In this document: positions 14,706 to 37,295 of the stretch, piece after piece
Position numbering within the stretch: the first letter of the stretch is position 1
Layout: the number at the start of each line of letters is the position of its first letter
Assembly (NCBI GenBank): GCA_038065795.1
Contig: JBBTQG010000013.1
Span: forward strand, 1-42,970
Direction of reading: 5' to 3'
Origin: Patescibacteria group bacterium
Lineage (GTDB): Bacteria > Patescibacteriota > Minisyncoccia > UBA6257 > HR35
Length of the DNA: 42,970 nt
Made by a program: the position numbers and the translations under genes
The notes under the pieces: generated by a model
Told to the model about the DNA's origin: nothing
The model's database searches: none
Seen by the model: the letters and a program-made list of their open reading frames with translations, nothing else

Positions 14706-15358
14706 GAAAATTTCACAATGGTTTCACTTTATTAGAAATCGCTGTTTCGTTAATCGTTATGTCTGTTTTATTGACTATTACTTTTAGTTTATTTTCTTTG
14801 AATAAAGATTTTTGGTTATTAAATGAAAAATCTCTTTATTTTGCAAAAAATCTTAATGGCGTTAAAAAACTTTCATTGCAAGGCGCGACATTTTCTGGAA
14901 AAAAAATTTGTGGCGCTGGAATTTTGATTGATAAAAATAAGAATGAATATTTCGGTATCGCTGTTGATATAGGTGATATCAGTACAGGATTGCTCAGTTG
15001 TTCTGGCGTTGATGCAGAATCTTTTGATTTAACAAAAATTAATGATTTAGAAAGTAATCAAAATGTTATAAAAATATCAAAGTTTTTTGATTTCACAACA
15101 GCGCCAGCCAATTTATTAAAAGAAAATTTTGAAAATGTTGTTATTTCTGTTTATCTTAATGAAGAAGATTCCCCGATAAATTTTGAAAAACTTGAAATAA
15201 TTTTTACAAATCCTTACGCAGATCCAAGAGTGTTTGTATCCCCATATACAATATCGTCAGAAATTAATGATTGGAACAAAATAAATTTTGATTTAAAATT
15301 TAAAGATGAGACTTCAAGGCTTACAATCACAAAAACCGGACAAATTTTATTTAAGTAG
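14702..15358 (+). CDS. minor pilin (prepilin-type N-terminal cleavage domain)
   Basis: MRKFHNG/FTLLEIAVSLIV prepilin signal; ATGA overlap with pilD. Confidence 0.75.
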   Translation: MRKFHNGFTLLEIAVSLIVMSVLLTITFSLFSLNKDFWLLNEKSLYFAKNLNGVKKLSLQGATFSGKKICGAGILIDKNKNEYFGIAVDIGDISTGLLSCSGVDAESFDLTKINDLESNQNVIKISKFFDFTTAPANLLKENFENVVISVYLNEEDSPINFEKLEIIFTNPYADPRVFVSPYTISSEINDWNKINFDLKFKDETSRLTITKTGQILFK

Positions 15359-15875
15359 AAGAGCGTTTTCATTAATAGAAGTTACTCTTGCGTTGTCTAT
15401 ATTCGTTATGGGGTTTATGGCGCTTTTTAATATTGTTAATTCATATTCGTATACGCTTAAAACAATAAAAGAAAGAATGACAGCAAATTTTTTAGCGCAA
15501 GAAGGATTAGAATTAGTTCTCGCTAAAAGAAACGCAAATTTCAAATTTCTTAATTCAGGAGGAACCGTAAATTGGATAGATGGACTTGGAGAAAAAATTT
15601 GTATAAACCCCGATCTTTCATTAATTGATTCACCCTGTAGCGATGGAAAATTATATTTAGATTCGGACACTGATGTATTTTCGCATAATCAAACGCCAAC
15701 CTCAAAACAATCAGCTTTCTCCAGAATTATAACAATAGCTAAAATTGACACCAAAGACTTAAATAACACAATTTCAAATGATTACGCTGTTCTTGTTGAA
15801 TCAGAAGTGAAATGGTCGGGAGAACCGATAATATTAAAAATGGTAATGACAAAATGGCACCCAAAATCGCAGTAA
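15306..15875 (+). CDS. minor pilin-like protein
   Basis: ...SRRA/FSLIEVTLALSIFV prepilin-like signal (Ala instead of Gly at -1); only in-frame start is ATG 15306, overlapping the previous gene by 53 nt. Confidence 0.6.
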   Translation: MRLQGLQSQKPDKFYLSRRAFSLIEVTLALSIFVMGFMALFNIVNSYSYTLKTIKERMTANFLAQEGLELVLAKRNANFKFLNSGGTVNWIDGLGEKICINPDLSLIDSPCSDGKLYLDSDTDVFSHNQTPTSKQSAFSRIITIAKIDTKDLNNTISNDYAVLVESEVKWSGEPIILKMVMTKWHPKSQ

Positions 15876-16384
15876 AAAATAAACCAAAAAAAATAGCATC
15901 AAAGGGTTTTACAATACTTGAAGCCGCTGTTTCTATTTTAGTTTTTGCTACTATTATAGGTATAGGTATTACATCATACATAAATCTTTTGAGGGCAAGC
16001 GCGATTTCCAGAAATGTTTATGCGTCTTTGGAAAATCTTTCACTTGGATTGGAAAGAATTTGGAAGGATGTAAAATACGGAAGTTGTTTTATAGCCGTAG
16101 ACGAAGGTCATTCCATACAATTTAAAGATATGAACGGAAAACAAATAGAGCTAAAATTAGATTCAGGAGTTATGAAATATATAAAAGAAAGTTCAGAGTT
16201 TGCGTTAAATGACTCACTTATTGCATTTGTGGAAAATGTGTATTTTATTGTTTCTAGTCAAAATACTTCTGTAACAATGTCAGTACTTGCCAAAATAAAA
16301 TCGAAAGATTTTGAGGCTCCAATTAATTTACAAATATCAGTTGCGCCAATTAACGCGCCGTTTCCATCACAACCATGCGAATAA
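15854..16384 (+). CDS. minor pilin-like protein
   Basis: MAPKIAVKNKPKKIASKG/FTILEAAVSILVF prepilin signal; track ORF begins at 15812, ATG 15854 gives a shorter overlap. Confidence 0.65.
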   Translation: MAPKIAVKNKPKKIASKGFTILEAAVSILVFATIIGIGITSYINLLRASAISRNVYASLENLSLGLERIWKDVKYGSCFIAVDEGHSIQFKDMNGKQIELKLDSGVMKYIKESSEFALNDSLIAFVENVYFIVSSQNTSVTMSVLAKIKSKDFEAPINLQISVAPINAPFPSQPCE

Positions 16385-16737
16385 TAAATCACAAAATTCA
16401 CAAATCCCATCACATACCACCAACCACCAACTACCCATTTAATGGTCAAGTTTATTTAGTTACAGTTTTTGCGTTGATGATAACGGCAATCGTGTTTTTT
16501 GTTATGATAACTCCGATTACAGAGCAAGCAAAAGGAGCCGTGAGTATATCGGATTCAAGCAGGGCGTTAGGAATTGCTGAAAGCGGATTGGAAATAGAGC
16601 TTCTTCGCGCTATCGCTAATCAAATTCCAAAAGAAAATTTATCTGAGTTTAGATATTCATCAAGCACTTTTGAAAAACAAATTGCAATTACTGGAAAAGT
16701 TAGAAATATTGAAAGAACTTTATTTTTTGGGCAATGA
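16375..16737 (+). CDS. PilX-like pilus-associated membrane protein
   Basis: One TM (VYLVTVFALMITAIVFFVMI) followed by SSRALGIAESGLEIEL, resembling the PilX N-terminal motif; last gene of the minor-pilin run. Confidence 0.45.
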   Translation: MRIINHKIHKSHHIPPTTNYPFNGQVYLVTVFALMITAIVFFVMITPITEQAKGAVSISDSSRALGIAESGLEIELLRAIANQIPKENLSEFRYSSSTFEKQIAITGKVRNIERTLFFGQ

Positions 16738-19263: not shown

Positions 19264-20883
19264 ATGCTTTCATTTTTAGAGTTTATTGGGATAAGTTCAA
19301 TAGCCGCGGCTGTTGTTTCTTTAATAACATATATTTTGAAGCAGCCGCAGATTTTAGGATTTCTTGTTTTGGGAGTGTTGATGAGCTCATTTTTTTTAAC
19401 GCAAGTGCCAATAAATTTAATAGAGGACACATCCTTGCTTGGAATAGCGCTTTTACTTTTTTTGATTGGAACTGAACTTAATATATCAAAAATTAAAAAA
19501 ATGGGGAGAGAATCTGCTGTTGTTGGAATTGGTCAAGTTTTAATCACAACAATTCTCGGTTTTTTAATTGCGTCAACGCTCGGTTTTGGCTTGACGGCAT
19601 CGTTAATTCTGGCTCTTGCGTTTTCGTTTAGTTCTACGGTTATTGTTGTAAAATTGATTTCCGATAAAAACGATATAGATTCTCTTTACGGAAGATTGAC
19701 GCTGGGAATTTTATTAATTCAAGATTTAATAGCGATTTTGCTCTTGATTTTATTGGAAGCGAAAAATTTTAATAATTTTATTTCGGCAATTGTATTTTTT
19801 TCTGGACTTTTTATTTTAGGATATTTGTTTTCGCCACGAATTTATAATTATTTCAGAAAAAGTTCAGAGGCGTTATTTTTTTTAAGTCTTGCGTGGGTTT
19901 TTGTATTTATTTTTTCAGCGAAATTTTTTAATTTAGGAGTTGAAATTCCGGCGCTTTTAGCTGGAATTAGCTTAGCGAGTGTTCCGCAGGTACTGGAAAT
20001 TTCAAGACGCATGCGTCCATTAAGAGATTTATTTTTGATTTTTTTCTTTATTAGTCTTGGCTCTCGAATATTTTTTTCAACAGATGTAATTTTGCCAGTT
20101 GCGATTTTTTCAGCATTTGTGTTAATTGGAAAATTGTTGATAATTTATTTTATTTTGAAAATATTAGGATATCAGAACAGAGTCAGTTTTTTTACTGGAA
20201 TTAATTTAGCCCAGATAAGCGAGTTCTCGCTGATTTTAGGAATTTTGTCGGCAAGACTCGGATATATTAATAAAAGCGAACTCGCAATTTTAGGATTGGT
20301 TGGACTTATAACCTTTTTTGCGTCTGCGTATCTAATTACATTTAGCAAAAAGATTTATAATTTTTTGAGAAAATTAAAAACGCAAAAAGAAATAGCTGAT
20401 GAAAGTTTATATGAAAATCATATTGTACTTATAGGTTTTCATAGAATTGGATATATTTTGGCGAATAAATTTAAAAATGATAATTTGTTGATTATAGAAT
20501 TTAATCCAGAGCTTATAAAAGCTTTGGAAAACGAAGGATTTAATTTTATTTACGGAGACATTGTAGATACGGATGTTGTTAAGCGCGCGAATATTGAAAA
20601 AGCAAAATTAGTTATTTCAACGGTGCCACTAGAAGAAGAAAATTTGTTTGTAATTTCAATGGCTAAATCGTATAAAGTTCCTGTAATTGTTACAGCTTTA
20701 AACTCAAAAGACGCGCTTGAATTTTATAAGGCAGGAGCGAACTATGTCATTATCCCCCACTTTCTTGGAGGGGAACATTCATCGGAATTTATCAAAAAAT
20801 TCATAGAAAACCCACAAAATGAAGATATAAAAAATACGCACATAATTGAGATGGAAAAGACCATAAAATTGGGGCATTTTTAA
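19264..20883 (+). CDS. cation:proton antiporter (CPA2/Kef-type) with C-terminal TrkA-N (KTN) domain
   Basis: About 12 hydrophobic segments, then the Rossmann-like HIVLIGFHRIGYILANKF. Confidence 0.8.
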   Translation: MLSFLEFIGISSIAAAVVSLITYILKQPQILGFLVLGVLMSSFFLTQVPINLIEDTSLLGIALLLFLIGTELNISKIKKMGRESAVVGIGQVLITTILGFLIASTLGFGLTASLILALAFSFSSTVIVVKLISDKNDIDSLYGRLTLGILLIQDLIAILLLILLEAKNFNNFISAIVFFSGLFILGYLFSPRIYNYFRKSSEALFFLSLAWVFVFIFSAKFFNLGVEIPALLAGISLASVPQVLEISRRMRPLRDLFLIFFFISLGSRIFFSTDVILPVAIFSAFVLIGKLLIIYFILKILGYQNRVSFFTGINLAQISEFSLILGILSARLGYINKSELAILGLVGLITFFASAYLITFSKKIYNFLRKLKTQKEIADESLYENHIVLIGFHRIGYILANKFKNDNLLIIEFNPELIKALENEGFNFIYGDIVDTDVVKRANIEKAKLVISTVPLEEENLFVISMAKSYKVPVIVTALNSKDALEFYKAGANYVIIPHFLGGEHSSEFIKKFIENPQNEDIKNTHIIEMEKTIKLGHF

Positions 20884-20990
20884 TCGAGCACCAATTGTAA
20901 TATTGAAAAACTAGTGAAAAACGCGCATTATAATTGAAAAAATTTAGGATTGTAATTGTTATTGAAATTATTACAATTGGCGCTCGATTA
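20881..20990. repeat. 110-bp element bounded by 22-bp inverted repeats TAATCGAGCACCAATTGTAATA / TATTACAATTGGCGCTCGATTA (1 mismatch)
   Basis: Arms 20881-20902 and 20969-20990; left arm starts on the TAA stop of the antiporter gene; right arm overlaps the TTATCCACA box. Confidence 0.6.
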
Positions 20991-21006: not shown

Positions 21007-21035
21007 TTGCATTATTTTTGAATATGTTTTATAAT
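21007..21035 (+). promoter_or_regulatory. sigma70-type promoter TTGCAT-17 nt-TATAAT
   Basis: TTGCAT 21007-21012, 17-nt spacer, TATAAT 21030-21035; ATG at 21046 implies a very short leader. Confidence 0.6.
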
Positions 21036-21045
21036 AAATAGTATC

Positions 21046-22113
21046 ATGAAGATAAAAGTATACGACGCTATGTCAGATATAGTATCTGATCTAACAGAAC
21101 GGGAAAAAGATGTAATTTTGAGACGATTTGGTTTAGGACAAGAAAAGCAAACCCTTCAAGCAGTGGGCGATATTTATGGTTTGACAAGAGAAAGGGTAAG
21201 ACAGATTCAAGATAAATCAATAGTTGATATAACCCCAAAATTAAGCAAGCATTCTTTTTTGGAAGAGCTTTCAAGAAACGCTCAAAAATCTCTTGGAAAA
21301 ATAAAAATTAAACGAGAAAGAACGCTACTTGATGATCTAGGTAGAATGTATAATCTTTCAGGAGACGATATTAATTATTTAAGATTTTTTTTAATTCTTC
21401 ATAAAAAACTTTCATACAATCCAGAAGATGATAATTTTCACGGGTACTGGGGTGATTCTACTCAAAGAACCAAAACAGCAAATCAAGTGCTAAAAAGGAT
21501 TATAGCGATGCTTTCAAAAAGACCTAGTAAGCTTTGGACATCAAAGGAAATTTTTGAGATTATTGAAGATGAAATAAAGAAAGGTCTTGGTGTAAAAGGA
21601 GATGCCGATGAACTAAAAGATTTTATGAGAATATTGAAAGTGATTGGAAAAAATCCAAGAAATGAATTTGGACTTTTGAATCATCCACATATTTCTCCAA
21701 CTTCATTAGACGATAAAGTTTATTTTGTTTTGGATAGTAAAAATGAACATATGCATTTTACTGAAATTTATGACGCCTTGCAAGAATTGTCTGAAATAGA
21801 AGATGAATTTATAAGTAAAAGATGGAAAAAAGATTATTCAAAGCAATCAATTCAAAATCTTTTGATTATGAATCCAGAATTTGTTTGGGCAGGAAGAGGA
21901 ACATATGCTTTAAAAAAATGGGGAGTTGTAGAAGGAACAATTCAAGATATAATGGCGAATATTGTTAAAAAATATAAAGAAATTGACAGACAGAAATTGA
22001 TGGAAGAATTAGCAAAAGAAAGAAGATTTTCAAAAATAACTTTTGAAGCGTATTTGAGAGATAAATCTCGTTTTTCTATAGCGCCTGACGGGACTATAAG
22101 GCTCGTAAAATAA
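21046..22113 (+). CDS. DNA-binding protein: N-terminal sigma-70 region-4-like HTH plus C-terminal HARE-HTH-like module
   Basis: LTEREKDVILRRFGLGQEKQTLQAVGDIYGLTRERVRQIQDKSI matches region 4.2; MHFTEIYDALQEL...WAGRGTYALKKWG resembles the HARE-HTH of RNAP delta-type proteins. Confidence 0.6.
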   Translation: MKIKVYDAMSDIVSDLTEREKDVILRRFGLGQEKQTLQAVGDIYGLTRERVRQIQDKSIVDITPKLSKHSFLEELSRNAQKSLGKIKIKRERTLLDDLGRMYNLSGDDINYLRFFLILHKKLSYNPEDDNFHGYWGDSTQRTKTANQVLKRIIAMLSKRPSKLWTSKEIFEIIEDEIKKGLGVKGDADELKDFMRILKVIGKNPRNEFGLLNHPHISPTSLDDKVYFVLDSKNEHMHFTEIYDALQELSEIEDEFISKRWKKDYSKQSIQNLLIMNPEFVWAGRGTYALKKWGVVEGTIQDIMANIVKKYKEIDRQKLMEELAKERRFSKITFEAYLRDKSRFSIAPDGTIRLVK

Positions 22114-22215
22114 AGTAAATCAATTATATTTTTAATTGTATTGTTGTATATTTATTGTATAAAAATTTTTAATTCTCTAATATAATTATCTTAATAGTCA
22201 TTTTTGGACATTTAA

Positions 22216-23505
22216 ATGTTTTATATATTAGATTTTTTTAGTTTTTTATTTGGAGCTATTTTTTCAATTTGGTGGATAATTTTACCGATTATGTTGGCGT
22301 GGTTCATTTGGGAAAAGAATTTAACAACAGTGAGAATGAATTTTCTTGGGAAATTGGAGTGGGTTTATATGGAAATTCATATTCCGCCAAATGTAACAAG
22401 AACCCCGAAAGCTATGGAAGAAGTTTTTAATGCTTTGCATGGTGTTCATAGAAAAGGCAATAAGTATATGAGATATGTAGGAGGATTTATACCGCCATAC
22501 TATGTTTTTGAATTAATAGGCAATAATGGAAAATTAAGATTTGTTATAAGATGCTTGAAAGAACACAAAGAATTGGTTAAGACAAGAATTTATTCTCAAT
22601 ATCCAGAGGCAAAAGTTGAAGAGATTGAAGACCCATTAAAAGATTTACCCGAAAAAGTTCCAGAATCTACATATAATATTTTCGGAACAGAGTTGGGTCT
22701 CATAAAAGATTCAGCTTATCCAATAAGAACATATGAAGTTTGGGAAAAATTGCCAGAAGAACAAAGAATTGACCCTATTTCCGCGTTATCAGAAGGAGCA
22801 AGTCAACTCGGCGAAGATGAATGGGTAATAATTCAGATTTTTGGAATGCCTGTGCCGCCGGATTCAGCGGAATGGGGAGACGAATGGGGGACCAAAGGAA
22901 AAAAAATAGTTGATAAATTGGCTGGAAGAAAAGAAGAAGAAAAAGAAAGAAATCCATTTGAAATAATCGGAGAGTTTATAGTGAATTTAATTTTAGCGCC
23001 ATTTAGAACTCCTCAATGGAAAGAAATCAAAAAAGAAGAAAGACAATATCCTACTCAAATGCAGTTTTTAACTCCCGGAGAAAAAGAGGTGCTGGAAGCT
23101 GTTGAAAAAAAATTATCAAAGCCGGGTTTTTGGGGTTGCGCAAGATTTGCTTATATTGCGAGAAAAGGCATATTTAGGGAAAAAATGCCGCAAAATGTAG
23201 GATTACTTTTTGGTTATATGAAAATTTTTAGCGCGCCCCATATGAACAGCTTAGTTAGAATCGCAGACAGCATGACATCAGTTGATTCCCCTGGTTATTT
23301 TATAAAAGAAAGAACATTTTTTAGAAAAAGATTTTTGTATTCATACATTAGGGGTCGGTGGAGAAGCGATTTCAAATTTCATGTTTTGACTTCTGATGAG
23401 ATGGCAACTTTATTTCATATTCCTGTTGAAGTTGTTCCAGCCCCGGGTGTTGAAAGAAGAGTTGTTATTGAAAAAGCTCCGAGCGCGGATATTCCAACAT
23501 TATAA
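22216..23505 (+). CDS. membrane-anchored protein of unknown function (429 aa), partner of the downstream ATPase
   Basis: About 30-residue N-terminal hydrophobic hairpin, large soluble domain, charged EEEKE linker; stop is 2 nt before the ATPase ATG. Confidence 0.6.
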   Translation: MFYILDFFSFLFGAIFSIWWIILPIMLAWFIWEKNLTTVRMNFLGKLEWVYMEIHIPPNVTRTPKAMEEVFNALHGVHRKGNKYMRYVGGFIPPYYVFELIGNNGKLRFVIRCLKEHKELVKTRIYSQYPEAKVEEIEDPLKDLPEKVPESTYNIFGTELGLIKDSAYPIRTYEVWEKLPEEQRIDPISALSEGASQLGEDEWVIIQIFGMPVPPDSAEWGDEWGTKGKKIVDKLAGRKEEEKERNPFEIIGEFIVNLILAPFRTPQWKEIKKEERQYPTQMQFLTPGEKEVLEAVEKKLSKPGFWGCARFAYIARKGIFREKMPQNVGLLFGYMKIFSAPHMNSLVRIADSMTSVDSPGYFIKERTFFRKRFLYSYIRGRWRSDFKFHVLTSDEMATLFHIPVEVVPAPGVERRVVIEKAPSADIPTL

Positions 23506-23507
23506 AA

Positions 23508-25016
23508 ATGTCAGATGTAACTCCAATTGGAACAATTCAGTTTAGGGAGAGAGAAATTAAATTTGGCGTGAAAAGAGATGACCGAAGGAGGCATATGTAT
23601 GTTATTGGTAAAACTGGCTCTGGAAAAACAACTCTTTTGGAAAATTTGATAATCAATGATATTAAAACAAAAGAAGGGATTGGATATATGGACCCGCACG
23701 GAGATAGTGTTAAGAGAATTTTAAAATATATCCCAAAAGAGAGAATTCAGGATGTTATTTATTTTAATCCTGCTGACACAAATCATCCAATATCTTTTAA
23801 CCCGCTTGAAGGAGTGTCTTGGGATTATAGGCATTTAGTCGCGTCAAGTATTTTATCTGTATTTAAAAAAATATGGATTGACGCATGGTCGGCAAGAATG
23901 GAATATATTTTAACCAATACTTTGTTGGCTCTTCTTGAATTTGGAAATTCTTCGTTATTAGATATAAACAGAATGCTCGGAGATGATGAATTCAGAAAAA
24001 ACAGGGTCAAGAGATTAAGAGACCCGGTTATTAAAGCATTTTGGGAACAGGAATTCGCAAAATATCATTTGAATTTTAGAATTGAGGCAATTGCTCCGAT
24101 TCAAAATAAAGTAGGTCAGTTTATTGCGAATCCATTAATAAGAAACATAATCGGTCAGGAAAAATCAAGCCTTGATTTGAGAAAAGTTATGGATGAAAAG
24201 AAAATTTTTCTTGCGAATCTTTCAAAAGGCTTACTCGGAGAAGAAAGCTCTATGCTTTTGGGCGGACTTTTAATTACAACATTTCAGCTTGCGGCAATGT
24301 CAAGAGTGGATGTTGAAGAAGAAGAAAGAAAAGATTTTTATCTGTATATTGATGAGTTTCAAAATTTTTCAACAGAATCATTTGTTGGAATTCTTTCAGA
24401 AGCCAGAAAATATCGTTTAAATCTGATATTAGCGCACCAATACTTAGACCAAGTTATAGAAGAAATTATGAATTCTGTTTTTGGAAATGTCGGAACTTTC
24501 ATAGTTTTCAAAACAGGCTCTATTGACGCCGAAAGATTTGAAAAAGAATACGGAGATGTGTATATTGACGAATTTGTTAATTTGCCAAAATATTACGCAT
24601 ATGTTAAGTTATTGGTTGATGGAATTACATCGCGACCATTTTTAGCTATTACATACCCAAATCCTACAATTCCAGAACAAACTTTTGAAAATGAAATAGT
24701 AAAATATTCCAGATTAAAATATGGAGAAAATATTGATGTCATTGAAACAAGAATCGCGTCGCATTATAGCAAAGATATTCCAGACAGAGAAAGAATTGTT
24801 ATGTATTGTGAAAATTGTCACCAAGAATTTGCGACAAACAAAAATAATCCTTCCAAAGTTTGTCAAGATTGTCAGAGTTTTAAAAAAGATACAGGGTTAT
24901 CTTTGAAAAATATTGCCGAAGATACTTTTATTGAACCAATGAAAAAAGAAAGAAAACCGAAAGAAGAAATTGACCAATTAAAATCTCTAATCAAAAAACT
25001 TCAAAAAGACGACTAA
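23508..25016 (+). CDS. FtsK/HerA/VirD4(TraD)-like P-loop NTPase with C-terminal zinc ribbon and Lys-rich tail
   Basis: Walker A GKTGSGKTT, Walker B FYLYIDEFQNF, ARKYRLNLILAHQYLDQ, CENC...CQDC; no TM of its own. Confidence 0.7.
   Translation: MSDVTPIGTIQFREREIKFGVKRDDRRRHMYVIGKTGSGKTTLLENLIINDIKTKEGIGYMDPHGDSVKRILKYIPKERIQDVIYFNPADTNHPISFNPLEGVSWDYRHLVASSILSVFKKIWIDAWSARMEYILTNTLLALLEFGNSSLLDINRMLGDDEFRKNRVKRLRDPVIKAFWEQEFAKYHLNFRIEAIAPIQNKVGQFIANPLIRNIIGQEKSSLDLRKVMDEKKIFLANLSKGLLGEESSMLLGGLLITTFQLAAMSRVDVEEEERKDFYLYIDEFQNFSTESFVGILSEARKYRLNLILAHQYLDQVIEEIMNSVFGNVGTFIVFKTGSIDAERFEKEYGDVYIDEFVNLPKYYAYVKLLVDGITSRPFLAITYPNPTIPEQTFENEIVKYSRLKYGENIDVIETRIASHYSKDIPDRERIVMYCENCHQEFATNKNNPSKVCQDCQSFKKDTGLSLKNIAEDTFIEPMKKERKPKEEIDQLKSLIKKLQKDD
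24942..25016 (+). repeat. 75-bp direct repeat, copy 1 (3' end of the ATPase gene including the stop)
   Basis: Identical to 25964-26038 by direct comparison. Confidence 0.9.
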
Positions 25017-25064: not shown

Positions 25065-25358
25065 ATGCTTTTTAAAAAGAAAGAAAAAATTCCTGAATTT
25101 TTTAAACCTATTTTATGGTCATATAATTTTGATGATATAAATCCTCGCAAAGACAAAAAGGCGATCATATTAAATAGTATAAATTATGGCGGTTTAAATC
25201 ATTGGCGTTGGATAATGAAATATTATGGTAAAAAGGAAATTAAAAAAAATTTATTAAAAATTCATACAACAGAAATAAGACCAAGAGCGTTAAATTTGGC
25301 ATCAATAATTTTTGGTGTTAAAAATTTTAACTATGCACCAAGAGGTACTAAGCGATAA
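25065..25358 (+). CDS. small protein (97 aa), putative partner/antitoxin of the AbiEii-like nucleotidyltransferase
   Basis: Overlaps the downstream NTase gene; role inferred from context only. Confidence 0.45.
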   Translation: MLFKKKEKIPEFFKPILWSYNFDDINPRKDKKAIILNSINYGGLNHWRWIMKYYGKKEIKKNLLKIHTTEIRPRALNLASIIFGVKNFNYAPRGTKR

Positions 25359-25950
25359 GCAAAAAATAATCTTCTCAAAACTAAATAATTTTAACGATTT
25401 TTATCTTGCTGGCGGCACCGCATTAGCCTTGGAAATAGGTCATAGAATATCTGTTGATTTTGATTTATTTTCAGAAGAATCAATATCAGAAAAATTATTA
25501 ACAAAAGTTAAAAATGTTTTTTCGGGAGAAAATGTTTCTATATCAGTTAATAATTTCGATGAGCTTACTATTTTTATAGATGGGGTTAAAGTCACTTTTT
25601 TAAAGTACCCATTCCCTGTTTTATTTGATTTTATCGATTTTGACGGGGTTAAATTGTTGAATACAAAAGAAATTGCATCTACAAAAGCGTACACTATCGG
25701 CAGAAGGGGAAGTTATAAGGATTATGTAGATTTGTATTTTATATTGTATGAAAACCATATTTTTTTAAATGAAATTTTGGAAATATCTGAAAAAAAATTC
25801 AAAAACGAATTTAATGGACGCTTATTTTTAGAGCAACTTGTTTATTTAGACGATATTGAGGATTTAGATGTAATTTTTTTGAAAAATAAAATAGACAAAA
25901 AAACCATAATAGAATTTTTTGTTAATGAAATCAAAAAAGTTAAAATATAA
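25333..25950 (+). CDS. nucleotidyltransferase, AbiEii/AbiGii toxin-like
   Basis: FYLAGGTALALEIGHRISVDFDLF matches the GGTAL...HR.S.D.D NTase motif of AbiEii-type toxins; track ORF starts at TTG 25312, ATG at 25333. Confidence 0.6.
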   Translation: MHQEVLSDKQKIIFSKLNNFNDFYLAGGTALALEIGHRISVDFDLFSEESISEKLLTKVKNVFSGENVSISVNNFDELTIFIDGVKVTFLKYPFPVLFDFIDFDGVKLLNTKEIASTKAYTIGRRGSYKDYVDLYFILYENHIFLNEILEISEKKFKNEFNGRLFLEQLVYLDDIEDLDVIFLKNKIDKKTIIEFFVNEIKKVKI

Positions 25951-30622: not shown

Positions 30623-32155
30623 ATGGCTAATCAAAAATTTCAAAACAGAACTTTATTTTTTGGAGACAATCTTGAGGTTTTAAGAAAGAAAATTCCAGAT
30701 GAGAGCTTCGACTTAATTTATTTAGACCCGCCTTTTAATTCAAATAGGGATTACAATGTGCTTTTTAAGGAAGGGAAAGTTGACAGTCCCGCGCAAATTG
30801 TAGCATTTGAAGATAGCTGGCATTGGACAGAAGAGGCGGATAAAATTTTCAATGAACTGGTTGGAGTAAAAAAATCAGAAACAGAAATTAATGAAACAAT
30901 CTCTAATTTGATGCTTGCATTGGAAAGATTGATTGGCAAAAACGATGTTTTGGCGTATTTGGTAATGATGACCATTCGTTTAATTGAATTAAAACGAATT
31001 CTTAAAAATACAGGAAGCATTTATTTGCATTGTGATCCAACAGCAAGTCATTATTTAAAAATTGTAATGGATGCGGTGTTTGGAAAGAAAAATTTTAGAA
31101 ATGAAATTATATGGCATTATAAAAGATGGACTGCTGCATCTAATCGTTTTCAGCGAATGCACGATATAATATTTTGGTATACAAAGACTGATAAATATAT
31201 CTTTACTAAACCGCTACAGCCTTATTCTAATCCAGAATGGGTAGAAGATACTGTTAGGGGTATTGTTAAGGGGAAATTAGTTCGTTTAAAGAATGAAGCA
31301 GGAGAATATATTAAAAGACAAAAAGAAAATCTTGGGGTTTTAATGCATGATGTTTGGGAAGATATAAATTTTATTCCACCAACATCCAAAGAACGACTTG
31401 GTTATGCCACTCAAAAACCAGAAGCACTATTAGAACGAATAATCAAGGCGTCTTCTAATGAAGGCGATTGGATTTTGGACCCATTTTGCGGTTGCGGAAC
31501 AACAGTTGCAGTTTCTGAAAAATTAAATCGTAAATGGGTTGGAATTGATATAACCACATTGGCAATAAATTTAATAAAACATCGTATTAACGCGCAATTT
31601 AGAGATAAACAATTCAAAATTTTAGTTGATGGATTGCCAAAAGATATATCAGGAGCAAAAGCGTTATTTAAAAAAGATCCGTTTGAATTTGAATACTGGG
31701 CATTAGATTTAGTTAGCGCTATGCCGTCTCAAAGTAAAACAAAAGAAAAAATGCGCGGAGCTGATAAGGGAATCGATGGAATTATTTCTTTTGTAAAAGG
31801 TTCTAATAATGGTGATTTTACATATGGCAGAATTGTTGTTCAGGTGAAAGGCGGCGGCGTTCAAAGAAAAGATATTGCAACATTAAAGGGCGATATTGAA
31901 AGAGAAAAAGCCGATGGCGGATTATTTATAACATTAGAAGAACCGACCAAACCAATGATTGAAGAGGCGGTAAAATCCGGGAAATTTAAAATTCCGCTTA
32001 TCGCTACAGAATTTCCAAAAATTCAAATTTTAACTATAAAGGATTTATTAAGCGGCAAAAAAATAATTTTACCGTTGGGAGCGGAACCGTACTACAAAAA
32101 AGCGAAAAAAGTTGAAATTTATAATTTCAAACCTAATAATCATTTTACATTTTAA
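30623..32155 (+). CDS. beta-class N6A/N4C DNA methyltransferase fused to a C-terminal Mrr-like (PD-(D/E)xK) nuclease domain
   Basis: Motif IV DLIYLDPPFNSN precedes motif I ILDPFCGCGTTVAVSEKL; C-terminus FEYWALDLV...GADKGIDGIISF...IVVQVKGGG matches the Mrr catalytic core. Confidence 0.75.
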   Translation: MANQKFQNRTLFFGDNLEVLRKKIPDESFDLIYLDPPFNSNRDYNVLFKEGKVDSPAQIVAFEDSWHWTEEADKIFNELVGVKKSETEINETISNLMLALERLIGKNDVLAYLVMMTIRLIELKRILKNTGSIYLHCDPTASHYLKIVMDAVFGKKNFRNEIIWHYKRWTAASNRFQRMHDIIFWYTKTDKYIFTKPLQPYSNPEWVEDTVRGIVKGKLVRLKNEAGEYIKRQKENLGVLMHDVWEDINFIPPTSKERLGYATQKPEALLERIIKASSNEGDWILDPFCGCGTTVAVSEKLNRKWVGIDITTLAINLIKHRINAQFRDKQFKILVDGLPKDISGAKALFKKDPFEFEYWALDLVSAMPSQSKTKEKMRGADKGIDGIISFVKGSNNGDFTYGRIVVQVKGGGVQRKDIATLKGDIEREKADGGLFITLEEPTKPMIEEAVKSGKFKIPLIATEFPKIQILTIKDLLSGKKIILPLGAEPYYKKAKKVEIYNFKPNNHFTF

Positions 32156-34052: not shown

Positions 34053-37000
34053 ATGGATATTCTCTTTTGGAGAGGAACCAATCGTTCTGGTGTTTTTCAA
34101 TCTTTAGTCGTCGTATTAGCACTCTTAATTTTATTTTTGGTATTATTGCCCAAAATATACGCAAAAACAAATAGTAATTATCCTGTTGTATCGGGTTCTG
34201 ATGTAAGCGGAGGCGGAACAGGCGCTTCTTTTACTATCGCTGATATAGATGAATTGAATACTAGTGGTTCACCTCTTATAGAGAGCAAAAATAATTGGCC
34301 AAGTAGTAATCAATATGATGAATCGCGCTATTTAGAATTTGTTTTTTCTCCAAATATTCCTTCTTCTGCAATAATAAAAAATGTTTCTATTATTAATATT
34401 TATCAGCAAATCGACAAAGAAGGAGCAAAATTATCAAAAGCAAAATTAGAAATATTTAGCGGCAACACTCTTGTTAAAAGCAAGGAAATTTCTGTTGATG
34501 CAAATCAAAGCAAATTTGATGTATTAGAATTAAATACACCCGCATTAATCAATGGTTTAAAAATAAAATTTTTAGCGTATTCTGACGGCGTTTTAATAAA
34601 AACAAATTATGATTTTATTGGAGTAACCGTTGAATATCAGCTACCACTAGTTGTTAAAGATAAATCAATAACAACCAATGAAGATGTGGCTACAACTACA
34701 ATACTGACAATAACTGACCCGGAAATGAAACGCGATGGTTCAATAATTTATTCTACAACAACAAATCCATCAAACGGAATAATAACTCTCTCTGGCAACA
34801 AAATCACATACACGCCAAATAAAAATTACAATGGCACAGATTCATTAAAATTTAAAGCAAACGATGGTTCAATAGACAGCAACGAAGCAACAATATCAAT
34901 AACAATTAGCCCAGTAAATAATGCGCCAATATTACAAAATATAACCAGCACATCCACAAACGAACTCACGGAATTCAAATTCACAGCATCGTCAACAGAC
35001 CCTGACGGAGACGCCATAACATACTCATTAACTCCAACGACAACAGGCGCGGTAATAAACGCAAACACAGGCGAATTCAAATGGACGCCAACCGAAGAAC
35101 AAGGTCCAAGCACACACACATTCACAATCACAGTAAAAGACACATCAAACGCAACAACATCTCAATCATTCACAATCACAGTCAACGAAGTAAATTCTGC
35201 CCCAACTGTGCCAAATATAACCCTTGTAACTGATAAAAATATATCAACTACAACAACATTATTAGCAACAGATTCAGACATACCGGCAAACACAATAAAA
35301 TTCGCAACGACATCAAACCCATCAAACGGCACAGCAACTATATCTAATAACAAATTAACTTACACGCCAAACTTTAACTTCATAGGAACAGATATAATCA
35401 CATACAAAGCAAACGATGGAGCAACAAGCTCAAATATCGCAACGATAACCGTAACTGTGAACCAGAAGAATAACTCACCGGTATTACAAAATATAACCAG
35501 CACATCCACAAACGAACTCACGGAATTCAAATTCACAGCATCGTCAACAGACCCTGACGGAGACGCCATAACATACTCATTAACTCCAACGACAACAGGC
35601 GCGGTAATAAACGCAAACACAGGCGAATTCAAATGGACGCCAACCGAAGAACAAGGTCCAAGCACACACACATTCACAATCACAGTAAAAGACACATCAA
35701 ACGCAACAACATCTCAATCATTCACAATCACAGTCAACGAAGTAAATTCTGCCCCAACTGTGCCAAATATAACCCTTGTAACTGATAAAAATATATCAAC
35801 TACAACAACATTATTAGCAACAGATTCAGACATACCGGCAAACACAATAAAATTCGCAACGACATCAAACCCATCAAACGGCACAGCAACTATATCTAAT
35901 AACAAATTAACTTACACGCCAAACTTTAACTTCATAGGAACAGATATAATCACATACAAAGCAAACGATGGAGCAACAAGCTCAAATATCGCAACGATAA
36001 CCGTAACTGTGAACCAGAAGAATGTACCTCCTATAGCGCAAAATATAAACGCTACCACAAGCGAAGAAACATTTGTGGCAATAATACTTAAAGCAACTGA
36101 TTCAGATGTGCCAGCAGATATATTAACCTACTCACTAACTTCAAATCCATCGCACGGCATATTATCTTTAAATAATTCAACTACAATTTATACTCCAGAA
36201 ATAAATTATTATGGAACTGATTCATTTACTTATAAAGCAAATGATGGAACAGGGGATTCTAATATCGCAACAGTAACAATTACAATAAGTAATATTAATG
36301 ATGCGCCGACAACAAATAATAAATCTGTAAACGCAACAGTTGATAATTCTATTATTATAGCAGTACCTGTTTCTGATCCTGACCCAAATAACACATTCAC
36401 GACTTCCGTAGTAAATTCTCCTTCTTTGGGTTCAATTACAGCTATAAATGGGTTGAATATAACTTATAAGCCAACAGGACCAGTTGGAACAGATACATTT
36501 ACATTCAAAGTTAATGACGGAGAATTTGATAGCAATATTGCAACGACAACGGTAACCTTAACGCACGGAGCTACAACTCAAATTATAATTTCAGCTACTC
36601 CAACTATATTAGATGTCGGAAGTTCTAGCGTAATAATGGTTTCAGTTCGTGATAAATTTAATAACATCGTTTCAAGCGATAATTCATCACAAATTGAACT
36701 TCGAGCTGAAGCTGACCGCGCTGATAGAGAAGTTATAATGGATCCTTCATTGCTCACACTTTCAAATGGTATTGCGACAACAACAATAACAAAAAATTCA
36801 TCAGGAGATGTAAAAATAACAGCCGTAAAAGAAGGGTTCAAAAAAGTTCAAACAACAGTGTCATTTATAAAATTTAAAATAAAAAATATTAATCAAACAA
36901 AAATACACGCAAAAGGAGATGATACATATAAAAATGGGTGGCAATGGATTTTAGACATTACAGCTCCATTAAACGAAACGGGCTTATCTATGAAATTCAG

Positions 37001-37295
37001 TGATTGGTTTAATGGCACATCAATTATTCCTATAAGCAGTAATATGCAATTTTATTCTGCGCAATCGTCAAACGCATTTGATGAAAATACCTCTATCGGC
37101 ATATCATCTCCTAACACATATAGTAATATTATGATTCTTAATAAAGACATTGATCCGGCAACCATAGGAAGACAAATACAAATTTATGTTAACGCTAAAA
37201 TTCCAAAAGATAAAAAAGAATTAAGCGGAGAATTTTCTATTTTATATAAAATATTAACCGAAGAATTTTCAGTATTGAAAACATTATTGGAATGA
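34053..37295 (+). CDS. giant surface adhesin with tandem Ig/cadherin-like repeats (1080 aa)
   Basis: N-terminal signal anchor; repeated about 90-aa modules ending in (V/I)N(N/S/D)AP linkers (..YTPN.NY.GTDS..YKANDG..S N.ATITITV); DPDGDAITYSL..NANTGEFKWTP modules; C-terminal invasin-type Ig-like module. Confidence 0.8.
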   Translation: MDILFWRGTNRSGVFQSLVVVLALLILFLVLLPKIYAKTNSNYPVVSGSDVSGGGTGASFTIADIDELNTSGSPLIESKNNWPSSNQYDESRYLEFVFSPNIPSSAIIKNVSIINIYQQIDKEGAKLSKAKLEIFSGNTLVKSKEISVDANQSKFDVLELNTPALINGLKIKFLAYSDGVLIKTNYDFIGVTVEYQLPLVVKDKSITTNEDVATTTILTITDPEMKRDGSIIYSTTTNPSNGIITLSGNKITYTPNKNYNGTDSLKFKANDGSIDSNEATISITISPVNNAPILQNITSTSTNELTEFKFTASSTDPDGDAITYSLTPTTTGAVINANTGEFKWTPTEEQGPSTHTFTITVKDTSNATTSQSFTITVNEVNSAPTVPNITLVTDKNISTTTTLLATDSDIPANTIKFATTSNPSNGTATISNNKLTYTPNFNFIGTDIITYKANDGATSSNIATITVTVNQKNNSPVLQNITSTSTNELTEFKFTASSTDPDGDAITYSLTPTTTGAVINANTGEFKWTPTEEQGPSTHTFTITVKDTSNATTSQSFTITVNEVNSAPTVPNITLVTDKNISTTTTLLATDSDIPANTIKFATTSNPSNGTATISNNKLTYTPNFNFIGTDIITYKANDGATSSNIATITVTVNQKNVPPIAQNINATTSEETFVAIILKATDSDVPADILTYSLTSNPSHGILSLNNSTTIYTPEINYYGTDSFTYKANDGTGDSNIATVTITISNINDAPTTNNKSVNATVDNSIIIAVPVSDPDPNNTFTTSVVNSPSLGSITAINGLNITYKPTGPVGTDTFTFKVNDGEFDSNIATTTVTLTHGATTQIIISATPTILDVGSSSVIMVSVRDKFNNIVSSDNSSQIELRAEADRADREVIMDPSLLTLSNGIATTTITKNSSGDVKITAVKEGFKKVQTTVSFIKFKIKNINQTKIHAKGDDTYKNGWQWILDITAPLNETGLSMKFSDWFNGTSIIPISSNMQFYSAQSSNAFDENTSIGISSPNTYSNIMILNKDIDPATIGRQIQIYVNAKIPKDKKELSGEFSILYKILTEEFSVLKTLLE
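34931..36023 (+). repeat. 552-bp tandem duplication inside the adhesin gene; 541 bp identical in each copy (34931-35471 and 35483-36023)
   Basis: Compared base by base; encodes an identical two-module block of about 180 aa twice. Confidence 0.9.

Follow-up and report, generated by a model that had tools for sequence, protein, structure and literature searches.

A DUF8128 membrane protein and a VirD4-type ATPase as the probable halves of a split type IV coupling protein in Patescibacteria

Introduction

A large part of bacterial diversity belongs to the Patescibacteria, and about 96% of their genomes contain VirD4-type ATPases, mostly encoded away from the genes of type IV secretion systems (T4SSs). 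One such ATPase is encoded by the last of three consecutive genes in a 42,970-nucleotide stretch of a Patescibacteria genome (contig JBBTQG010000013.1 of assembly GCA_038065795.1), referred to below as the window. Gene 1 (positions 21046-22113, 355 amino acids) encodes a protein with a sigma-70 region 4, gene 2 (22216-23505, 429 amino acids) a membrane protein, and gene 3 (23508-25016, 502 amino acids) the ATPase. All three open reading frames (ORFs), and the features within them, are on the + strand. Their coordinates, and the 2 nt that separate the TAA stop codon of gene 2 from the start of gene 3, reproduce those given in an earlier reading of the bare sequence, called here the original prediction. 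The locus raises the question of how an ATPase of this type operates without a membrane anchor of its own and without a secretion system beside it, and whether gene 1 belongs to the same machine.

Here we show by sequence comparison that genes 2 and 3 are collinear with the single-chain type IV coupling proteins (T4CPs) encoded by plasmids of Actinobacteria and Bacillota. We propose that together they probably constitute one T4CP of the VirD4/TraD/TrwB superfamily, cut into two polypeptides within the linker between its N-terminal domain (N-domain) and its ATPase. The original prediction was largely correct, and its idea of a split architecture was right, although it regarded the module as uncharacterised. 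Orphan VirD4-type T4CPs of Patescibacteria were reported in 2025 by Quinonero-Coronel et al. (PMC12102498), the searched parts of which give VirD4-type T4CPs in 2,918 of 3,035 genomes (96%), VirB4 in 2,417 of them (80%), and a location near virB4 for only 148 of 5,713 T4CPs. As described there, these orphan proteins are almost certainly the same family as gene 3. The searched parts of that study and a full-text literature search contained no mention of DUF8128, of the split, of the link to fused N-domains or of a neighbour combining sigma region 4 with a HARE-HTH domain. The full-text search found no paper that mentions DUF8128, and none that pairs HARE-HTH with Patescibacteria. What is new here is therefore the split, chromosomal and relaxase-less arrangement with its sigma-4 neighbour, whereas the T4CP class and its Patescibacteria ATPase family were already known; the module is not a new type of system.

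Gene 3 encodes a VirD4/TrwB-type ATPase

Profile searches assign the product of gene 3 to the VirD4/TrwB-type T4CP ATPases. The protein matches the Pfam families TrwB_AAD_bind (PF10412; residues 25-350, E 2.4e-8, 33.7 bits at a cut-off of 20.5) and T4SS-DNA_transf (PF02534; E 4.8e-7, 29.4 bits at a cut-off of 20.1). Its best NCBIfam matches are the VirD4-like CD1115 family and TraD, and the sole matching PDB sequences are those of TrwB and DotL. A profile of 38 homologues of gene 3 was aligned by hhalign with TrwB at 93.8% over 268 columns, with the Gram-positive VirB4 protein TrsE at 74.8% over 115 columns, and with TrwK/VirB4 at 4.6%. The TrwB_AAD_bind match and the hhalign alignment, which runs through TrwB residues 118-393, both extend across the region of the TrwB all-alpha domain.

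The catalytic motifs are conserved among the 38 homologues. G34, G37, G39 and K40 are invariant in the Walker A motif GKTGSGKT (residues 34-41, positions 23607-23630), as are D282 and E283 in the Walker B motif YLYIDE (residues 278-283, 24339-24356), which aligns with that of TrwB. The alignment with TrwB also places the sensor motif AHQYLDQ (residues 309-315, 24432-24452), in which Q311 and Q315 are invariant; Q311 corresponds to the TrwB motif GLQ, and the invariant R300, just before AHQYLDQ, to the arginine of the TrwB motif GRK. The C-terminal part of the protein contains the sequence motif of a zinc ribbon, C434xxC437-x14-C452xxC455 (residues 434-455, 24807-24872), and many homologues carry the zinc-finger family PF23477 (zf_Tbcl_2). 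The ribbon is followed by a tail that is Lys-rich and of mixed charge in composition (24873-25013), the last 50 residues of the protein comprising eleven lysines (11 K), one arginine (1 R), five glutamates (5 E) and six aspartates (6 D). Gene 3 does not encode a hydrophobic or transmembrane (TM) segment (maximum KD19 1.42). The motifs, the ribbon, the tail and the lack of a TM segment are all present as originally claimed, and the matches to TrwB, VirD4 and TraD in Pfam, NCBIfam and the PDB agree with the claim of a VirD4/TraD-like ATPase without its own anchor.

Gene 3 has more than 8,000 database matches and is the best conserved member of the trio: identity across the phylum is typically 50-65%, with a median of 53%, whereas the medians of genes 1 and 2 are 28% and 31%. 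Two other ATPase families were considered and rejected. FtsK/SpoIIIE (PF01580) is matched at the P-loop only, with 17.8 bits and thus short of the cut-off of 24, and a gamma domain is missing. A replacement of FtsK by the module was also thought of; ftsK is mentioned in papers on TM7x. The match to HerA (DUF87) lies at the cut-off (23.6 versus 23.2 bits) and is restricted to residues 7-94, and no NurA-like neighbour is annotated.

Gene 2 encodes a membrane protein of the DUF8128 family

The large domain of gene 2, which the original prediction could not name, is the Pfam family DUF8128 (PF26449), whose homology to the N-domain of plasmid-encoded T4CPs is shown below. A Pfam scan of gene 2 itself gave no match; the family is known from the precomputed annotation of a database protein that is 100% identical to gene 2, and most homologues carry it as well. 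All named homologues come from metagenome-assembled genomes (MAGs) of Patescibacteria. A search of 1.84 billion representatives with the DUF8128 profile yielded 3,858 clusters, the best 150 of which all contain standalone proteins of 396-551 residues. One homologue that resembled a natural fusion of genes 2 and 3 was discarded as a chimeric assembly, in which ~100 residues of gene 2 are followed by unrelated sequence.

The AlphaFold model of gene 2 (40 homologues; pLDDT 86, pTM 0.81) consists of one continuous helix formed by residues 2-46, an alpha/beta domain, and a disordered segment at residues 410-423. A Kyte-Doolittle scan identified a single hydrophobic run of 31 residues at the N terminus (residues ~3-33, 22222-22314), which is followed by basic residues. 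Because of the length of this run, the basic residues after it and the single helix of the model, we read it as a single-pass anchor and not as the two-TM hairpin that had been proposed. According to the positive-inside rule, the protein would have its N terminus outside and its C terminus inside the cell. The C-terminal motif LTSDEMATLFHIP (residues 391-403, 23386-23424), to which attention had been drawn already, belongs to the best-conserved stretches of gene 2, with A397 and H401 invariant, and is the equivalent of the motif ELAxLxHLP in fused T4CPs.

Genes 2 and 3 are collinear with single-chain coupling proteins

Searches of plasmids with gene 3 (tblastn) identified relatives in Streptomycetaceae, Bacillota and haloarchaea. 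The relative from a plasmid of Embleya sp. NBC_00896 (WP_331738717.1) is one protein of 812 residues that comprises a TM segment, an N-domain and an ATPase. Its N-terminal TM segment is followed by an Arg-rich stretch, and its similarity to the ATPase starts at about residue 397. The Embleya gene is located between genes for a VirB4-like ATPase (TraC/AAA_10/P-loop_TraG) and a Replic_Relax protein, and T4CP-like genes followed by Replic_Relax genes are also present in plasmids of Shouchella clausii (WP_248290882.1) and B. subtilis (AUS14679.1).

When the concatenated products of genes 2 and 3 were compared with the fused proteins by BLASTP, single high-scoring segment pairs (HSPs) extended across the artificial junction between residues 429 and 430. 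The HSP with the Embleya protein joins residues 344-832 of the concatenate to residues 330-801 of the plasmid protein, with 32% identity and E 6e-70, and weaker second HSPs fall within the N-domain. The spacing of the motifs is also retained. In the fused proteins, ELA(A/T)LAHLP precedes Walker A by 68 residues, and the corresponding EEMAAIMRLP of Bacillota does so by 71 residues; in the split pair, the motif is conserved as ELAxLxHxP, and E395 of gene 2 is separated from G34 of gene 3 by 68 residues, as in the fused form. Comparison of the DUF8128 profile with the N-terminal regions of four fused T4CPs gave a match of 99.2% probability (hhalign, E 5.5e-20, 338 columns) that spans residues 30-429 of gene 2 and 58-395 of the Embleya protein, and the three actinobacterial fused sequences on their own gave 95.5% (E 1.5e-8). 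The point at which the chain is divided lies in a disordered linker of low conservation that has pLDDT below 50 in the model of gene 2.

The alignment across the junction, the equal distance between motif and Walker A, and the profile match therefore indicate that genes 2 and 3 are probably the two halves of one T4CP. The N-terminal anchor, absent from gene 3, is present in gene 2, which is homologous to the TM-bearing part of the fused T4CPs. The junction-spanning HSPs and the 99.2% match to fused N-domains thus substantiate the proposal of the original prediction that the anchor is supplied in trans by the upstream gene.

The closest relative of gene 3 outside the Patescibacteria, with 39% identity, is a 395-residue ATPase-only protein encoded by a plasmid of Sulfitobacter mediterraneus (NZ_CP081110.1, 99994-101181). 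Its gene is located between a recombinase and transposases and does not have an N-domain partner, which suggests that it is a horizontally acquired fragment.

Gene order is conserved across Patescibacteria

Conservation of the locus was evaluated in 80 loci from different GTDB species, with counts taken over the assessable loci. In 64 of 71 loci, gene 3 directly follows the DUF8128 gene in the same orientation; in 65 of 72, the DUF8128 gene is directly preceded by a homologue of gene 1, and in 53 of 64 all three genes occur in order. The median gap is 16 nt between genes 2 and 3 (62 species), an operon-like spacing, and 44 nt between genes 1 and 2. No fused form of genes 2 and 3 was seen among the 80 loci. 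SecD/SecF genes directly precede the module in 53 of the 80 loci; no more than 54 of the 80 reach 4.5 kb or further upstream from gene 2. Clustering of the flanking ORFs showed that MnmA, SecA, EF-P and AlaRS recur near the module, with secA further upstream in 13 loci. In the window, a KefB-type Na+/H+ exchanger with a TrkA-N domain (19264-20883) occupies the place of secDF. Because its position next to conserved neighbours is fixed, the module belongs to the vertically inherited core of Patescibacteria genomes and is not a mobile or defence island. A tblastn search for DUF8128 on plasmids and phages returned no match.

The original prediction had drawn on the surroundings of the module, namely a competence pilus, ComFC, ligA, a toxin cassette and a restriction-modification gene. 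This argument did not hold, since the conserved neighbours are secD/secF, mnmA and alaS; the type IV pilus operon, ligA, dnaG, rpoD and the methyltransferase-Mrr gene are not conserved neighbours. The synteny itself was confirmed. As the synteny of the three genes extends over many genomes and no cognate T4SS is encoded nearby, neither of the two findings that the original prediction had named as counting against it was made.

A number of loci with DUF8128 belong to MAGs that carry the label Gammaproteobacteria, Bdellovibrionales, Binatia or Bathyarchaeia, mostly on short contigs or in automated bins, and these are probably mis-binned Patescibacteria contigs.

Proposed mechanism of the split coupling protein

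Based on the collinearity described above and on the known behaviour of TrwB and VirD4, a mechanism of the split T4CP can be proposed. Gene 2 would provide a single N-terminal membrane helix and a cytoplasmic alpha/beta domain of ~380 residues that ends in ELAxLxHxP and a disordered linker. Gene 3 would provide the P-loop motor, with a predicted all-alpha insertion, the zinc ribbon and the basic tail. By analogy, the two halves may reassemble non-covalently at the inner face of the membrane, where the ATPase would form a TrwB-like hexameric ring. Driven by ATP hydrolysis, a substrate, either nucleic acid or protein, would then be handed over to a channel in the membrane. For this channel, the Patescibacteria T4SS encoded elsewhere in the genome is the most economical candidate, because its own cluster does not include a recognisable T4CP (PMC10633639), and the pair of genes 2 and 3 may recruit substrates to it.

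Several observations weigh against this proposal. The physical association of the two proteins is itself deduced from their sequences. VirB4, relaxase or other T4SS genes were found neither in the window, as the original prediction had noted, nor in the 6-kb flanks or among the conserved neighbours of the 80 loci. The ATPase gene is not adjacent to the DUF8128 gene in 7 of 71 loci, and in GCA_026004515.1 (a 393-kb contig) gene 1 and the DUF8128 gene overlap by 4 nt, whereas the ATPase gene is ~100 genes away. In Southlakia epibionticum, the T4SS is essential, whereas SEML1_0293, an ATPase of the adjacent type, is not (Wang et al. 2023, PMC10633639). SEML1_0293 has 921 residues, of which 402-719 match TrwB_AAD_bind and 361-795 a P-loop domain. 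It is probably the unsplit form, because its length is close to the sum of genes 2 and 3 (429 + 502 = 931) and because its domains are correspondingly offset, a deduction from length and domain coordinates only. The presence of T4CPs in 96% but VirB4 in 80% of the genomes covered in the searched parts of PMC12102498 argues against an obligatory T4SS partnership. The wider distribution of T4CPs, dispensability in co-culture and the lack of relaxases leave room for a T4SS-independent role.

In GCA_026004515.1, the separated genes have locus tags ending in _0290 and _0190, and FtsH is encoded convergently downstream; the pair can thus be uncoupled genomically. A Patescibacteria genome encodes ~2 T4CP homologues on average, which may differ in their roles. 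At SEML1_0141-0142, S. epibionticum encodes a second, essential TraD/TraG-like ATPase (1019 residues, P-loop 381-800), and the hypothetical gene before it, of 139 amino acids, is essential too (Wang et al. 2023, Table S1, PMC10633639).

Gene 1 combines a sigma region 4 with winged helices

Gene 1 begins with a sigma-70 region 4 helix-turn-helix (residues 7-62, 21064-21231) containing the recognition helix LTRERVRQI. The Pfam match to Sigma70_r4 covers residues 14-58 (E 2.4e-13), and the region is 42% identical to region 4 of the RpoD encoded in the same window, with which it has the LTRERVRQ helix in common. A HARE-HTH-type winged helix follows at residues ~221-297 (21706-21936). It is supported by a weak match to the NCBIfam model RNAP_delt_lowGC (residues 223-297, E 9e-4), by PF05066 on most homologues of gene 1, and by the AlphaFold (AF2) model, which has a pLDDT of 95.5. 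The secondary structure of the model includes another winged helix between the HARE-type one and the end of the protein at residue 355. In Foldseek comparisons, the N terminus of the model superposes on sigmaA region 4 structures with an rmsd of 1.2-2.2 Å, and the remainder matches the tandem winged-helix arrays of RPC62 and Dcc1. Gene 1 thus has an N-terminal region 4 and then three winged helices in an RPC62/Dcc1-like array. These results sustain the predicted combination of a sigma region 4 with a C-terminal HARE-HTH-like module, the latter weak in gene 1 itself and present on most homologues.

Pfam identifies Sigma70_r4 only, and sigma region 2 was not found in gene 1. All NCBIfam sigma matches are far below their cut-offs and confined to residues 5-76. 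Gene 1 cannot be a sigma factor, because sigma regions 1-3 are missing. It was also considered as a degenerate counterpart of the Replic_Relax partner of the plasmid T4CPs, which was ruled out since there is no similarity. The sigma-4/three-winged-helix protein is enriched in Patescibacteria, is essential in transposon sequencing (Tn-seq) of S. epibionticum, and retains the -35-reading helix of the housekeeping sigma factor; judged from this helix, it may compete with or mimic sigma region 4.

Gene 1 may be separate from the two-subunit machine

The original prediction treated the three genes as one module. The chances are about even that they are not a single unit. In that case, only genes 2 and 3 would form a machine, gene 1 would act on its own as an essential transcription factor or RNA polymerase (RNAP)-associated protein specific to Patescibacteria, and the three genes would be neighbours owing to ancestral gene order or simple co-regulation. 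A difference within the trio comes from S. epibionticum, in which the counterpart of gene 1, SEML1_0294 (Sigma70_r4 and HARE-HTH, 349 residues), is essential in Tn-seq, whereas SEML1_0293, directly downstream of it, is non-essential (PMC10633639). The gap between genes 1 and 2 is wider than that between genes 2 and 3, both in the window (102 versus 2 nt) and in the medians given above, and in some lineages an unrelated gene of 125 amino acids takes the place of gene 1. Furthermore, gene 1 joins two RNAP-linked modules, the RpoD-like region 4 and the delta-type HARE-HTH. The adjacency in 65 of 72 loci, which extends across very divergent classes and exceeds that of most core neighbours, favours a single unit, though secDF is kept too. 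Because SEML1_0294 is essential while the adjacent ATPase is dispensable, gene 1 is most likely a DNA- or RNAP-binding protein with an essential transcriptional role of its own and not a dedicated subunit; it is co-located and probably co-transcribed with genes 2 and 3.

A less likely explanation, with roughly one chance in five, is that the split T4CP has been exapted for a DNA-related job independent of any T4SS, for example to take up foreign DNA by way of a different channel or to handle the chromosome of the cell itself. Gene 1 would then be the DNA-targeting subunit, its sigma-4 helix reading -35-like sequences and its winged helices docking on the motor. T4CPs normally act with small DNA-binding accessory proteins, as in TraM/TraD and TrwA/TrwB. 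The unusual conservation of gene 3, its zinc ribbon and basic tail, and the gene order kept in 53 of 64 species and, apparently, in Saccharimonadia are consistent with such a role, as is the broader distribution of T4CPs than of VirB4; exaptation of Patescibacteria T4CPs is raised in the searched parts of Quinonero-Coronel et al. (PMC12102498). However, the counterpart of gene 1 is essential and the ATPase is not, so that gene 1 must have another job as well. Moreover, the synteny may be nothing but the inherited core order secDF-gene 1-gene 2-gene 3, and contact between the products of genes 1 and 3 is purely conjectural. The most specific form of this idea, that the secDF-proximal trio is a Patescibacteria-specific, T4SS-independent DNA machine in which the essential sigma-4-like reader of -35 sequences, with its three winged helices, targets a membrane-tethered two-piece motor to specific DNA, is somewhat more doubtful again. 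If it were true, the machine might import or export DNA at the interface between epibiont and host, or move the cell's own chromosome, and a T4CP would have been domesticated into core biology.

Alternative assignments of genes 2 and 3

It is very improbable that genes 2 and 3 together represent a second, divergent VirB4-like ATPase composed of an N-domain and a motor. The idea arises from the Foldseek comparison of the gene 2 model, in which TrwK/VirB4 chains from the T4SS of R388 rank first among the PDB matches (E 5e-5, probability 1.0, TMq 0.38), although berberine-bridge enzymes follow almost level (E 1.5e-4, TM 0.22) and the output does not indicate which region of TrwK was aligned. VirB4 proteins also have a motif of the NxxAxLxxxH type, ISSxNFAxLxSFHNF, ~54 residues before Walker A, and TrsD/TrsE provide a precedent for a split VirB4. 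Against it, sequence comparisons gave no signal. The DUF8128 profile retrieved nothing meaningful from the PDB sequences. We aligned TrwK, TrsD, TrsE and ten more VirB4 N-domains for hhalign, and the comparisons of DUF8128 with TrwK, TrsE, TrsD and an 11-member VirB4 N-domain profile were all non-significant (E ~0.5). Because all profile comparisons gave this result, the VirB4 likeness of DUF8128 comes from Foldseek, and a VirB4-like fold of the N-domain in gene 2 is possible, as a lead from modelling and not as a finding. Gene 3 itself fits T4CP models far better than VirB4 models, with TIGR00929 matching its P-loop only, and the fused relatives adjoin a separate VirB4-like gene.

An anti-phage defence function, as suggested in the original prediction, is the least credible of all. 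In its favour, PADLOC pairs gene 3 best with mad8 from the MADS system (E 2.2e-15, 55 bits), and an AbiEii toxin pair and a methyltransferase-Mrr gene are nearby. However, mad3 is matched by the P-loop alone, PADLOC detected no other MADS component, these neighbours are not conserved, the module has a fixed, vertically inherited position beside secDF in most species, and the family is near-universal in the phylum with a highly conserved ATPase.

Transcription of the locus and other features of the window

The GC content of the window is 30-32%, and nearly all genes are on the + strand. A candidate promoter, TTGCAT-17-TATAAT (21007-21035, + strand), was read from the sequence upstream of gene 1. 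The original prediction of a near-consensus promoter driving all three genes stands in that the site is present with a perfect -10 element (TATAAT, 21030-21035). It does not stand for the -35 element, which agrees with TTGACA at only 3 of 6 positions; for this reason, the promoter scan omits the site. Promoter-like sites are not enriched in the region (31 observed versus 26.8 +/- 4.4 in shuffled sequence). The ATG codon of gene 1 is 10 nt downstream of the candidate -10 element, and the mRNA would therefore be leaderless or nearly so if this promoter is used. The AT-rich gap between genes 1 and 2 was scanned for terminator-like sites, of which none was found, and for promoter-like sites on the + strand, of which there was only a weak one (9/12) that runs into the start of gene 2. 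A single transcript of genes 1-3 is plausible, and not more than that because of the 102-nt gap.

A perfect 8-bp inverted repeat, ATTGTAAT-13-ATTACAAT (20949-20977), is located ~30 nt 5' of the candidate -35 element. Its TTGTAA half-sites look like a -35 hexamer and might be bound by a sigma-4-type protein, possibly for autoregulation; the repeat could alternatively have arisen by chance in AT-rich DNA.

Between the module and efp, overlapping ORFs encode a DUF6922 protein (97 amino acids) and an AbiEii nucleotidyltransferase toxin (212 amino acids; 25065-25950). The GC content of this pair, 0.25, is the lowest in the window, and the pair is not a conserved neighbour in other species. A single 510-residue ORF (30623-32155) encodes an N6/N4 DNA methyltransferase fused to an Mrr-type restriction nuclease domain. 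A surface protein of 1080 residues with Big_9/cadherin repeats, followed by a dockerin/CHB_HEX_C protein, is encoded at 34053-37295. Within the gene of the 1080-residue protein, positions 35001-36000 have a marked anomaly of composition (GC 0.39, GC skew -0.36, AT skew +0.43). Three ORFs of 189, 190 and 120 residues without Pfam matches close the type IV pilus operon (15306-16737) and may encode minor pilins or assembly factors.

Significance

The assignment gives DUF8128, a family of ~3,800 clusters, an identity as the detached membrane and N-domain half of a T4CP ATPase, and connects the pair with genuine coupling proteins of plasmids, whose genes are accompanied by Replic_Relax genes. The "orphan T4CP" of Patescibacteria thereby becomes a testable two-subunit machine of the vertically inherited core equipment. 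The sigma-4/winged-helix neighbour, essential in the one species that is genetically tractable, is a candidate phylum-specific transcription or DNA-targeting factor.

Comparison with known systems

Gene 1 shares regions 4.1 and 4.2, including LTRERVRQI, with RNAP sigma-70 factors, and a HARE-type winged helix with the RNAP delta subunit. Unlike sigma-70 factors, which have regions 1-3, it lacks these regions and carries region 4 at its N terminus.

VirB4 (TrwK) with VirB3, and the split TrsD/TrsE of pSK41/pGO1, resemble genes 2 and 3 in combining a membrane-associated N-domain with a motor of the same superfamily, and TrsD/TrsE set a precedent for an N-domain separated from its motor. However, the N-domains of VirB4 and TrsD have no detectable sequence relation to DUF8128, and the motor of gene 3 is of the T4CP type instead.

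TrwB of R388, VirD4 and TraD share with gene 3 the Walker A and B motifs, the arginine, the sensor glutamine and an alignment that continues through the all-alpha region. In TrwB, the N-terminal TM region of ~70 residues is on the same chain, there is no large cytoplasmic N-domain, and the gene is located beside those of the relaxase and the T4SS. Genes 2 and 3 differ from these classical T4CPs in this linkage, as the 43-kb window encodes neither a relaxase nor VirB4. The lack of an anchor in the ATPase is not a novelty, as the original prediction had implied, since T4CPs without TM segments exist, for example TrsK of pSK41. Like gene 3, the orphan T4CPs of Patescibacteria described in the searched parts of PMC12102498 are widespread and far from virB4, whereas SEML1_0293, with its 921 residues, is apparently unsplit.

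The closest known counterparts are the single-chain T4CPs of conjugative or mobilisable monoderm plasmids, whose ATPases are 26-32% identical to gene 3. They have the same order of parts, from the TM segment through an N-domain of ~350 residues, ELAxLxHLP and a linker of ~68-71 residues to a VirD4-type ATPase. They are plasmid-borne single polypeptides, with a Replic_Relax gene directly after them and, in Embleya, a VirB4-like ATPase gene before them. In contrast, genes 2 and 3 are a split version on the chromosome, without a relaxase or T4SS gene beside them; this version possesses a zinc ribbon and a Lys-rich tail, and a sigma-4/winged-helix gene precedes it.

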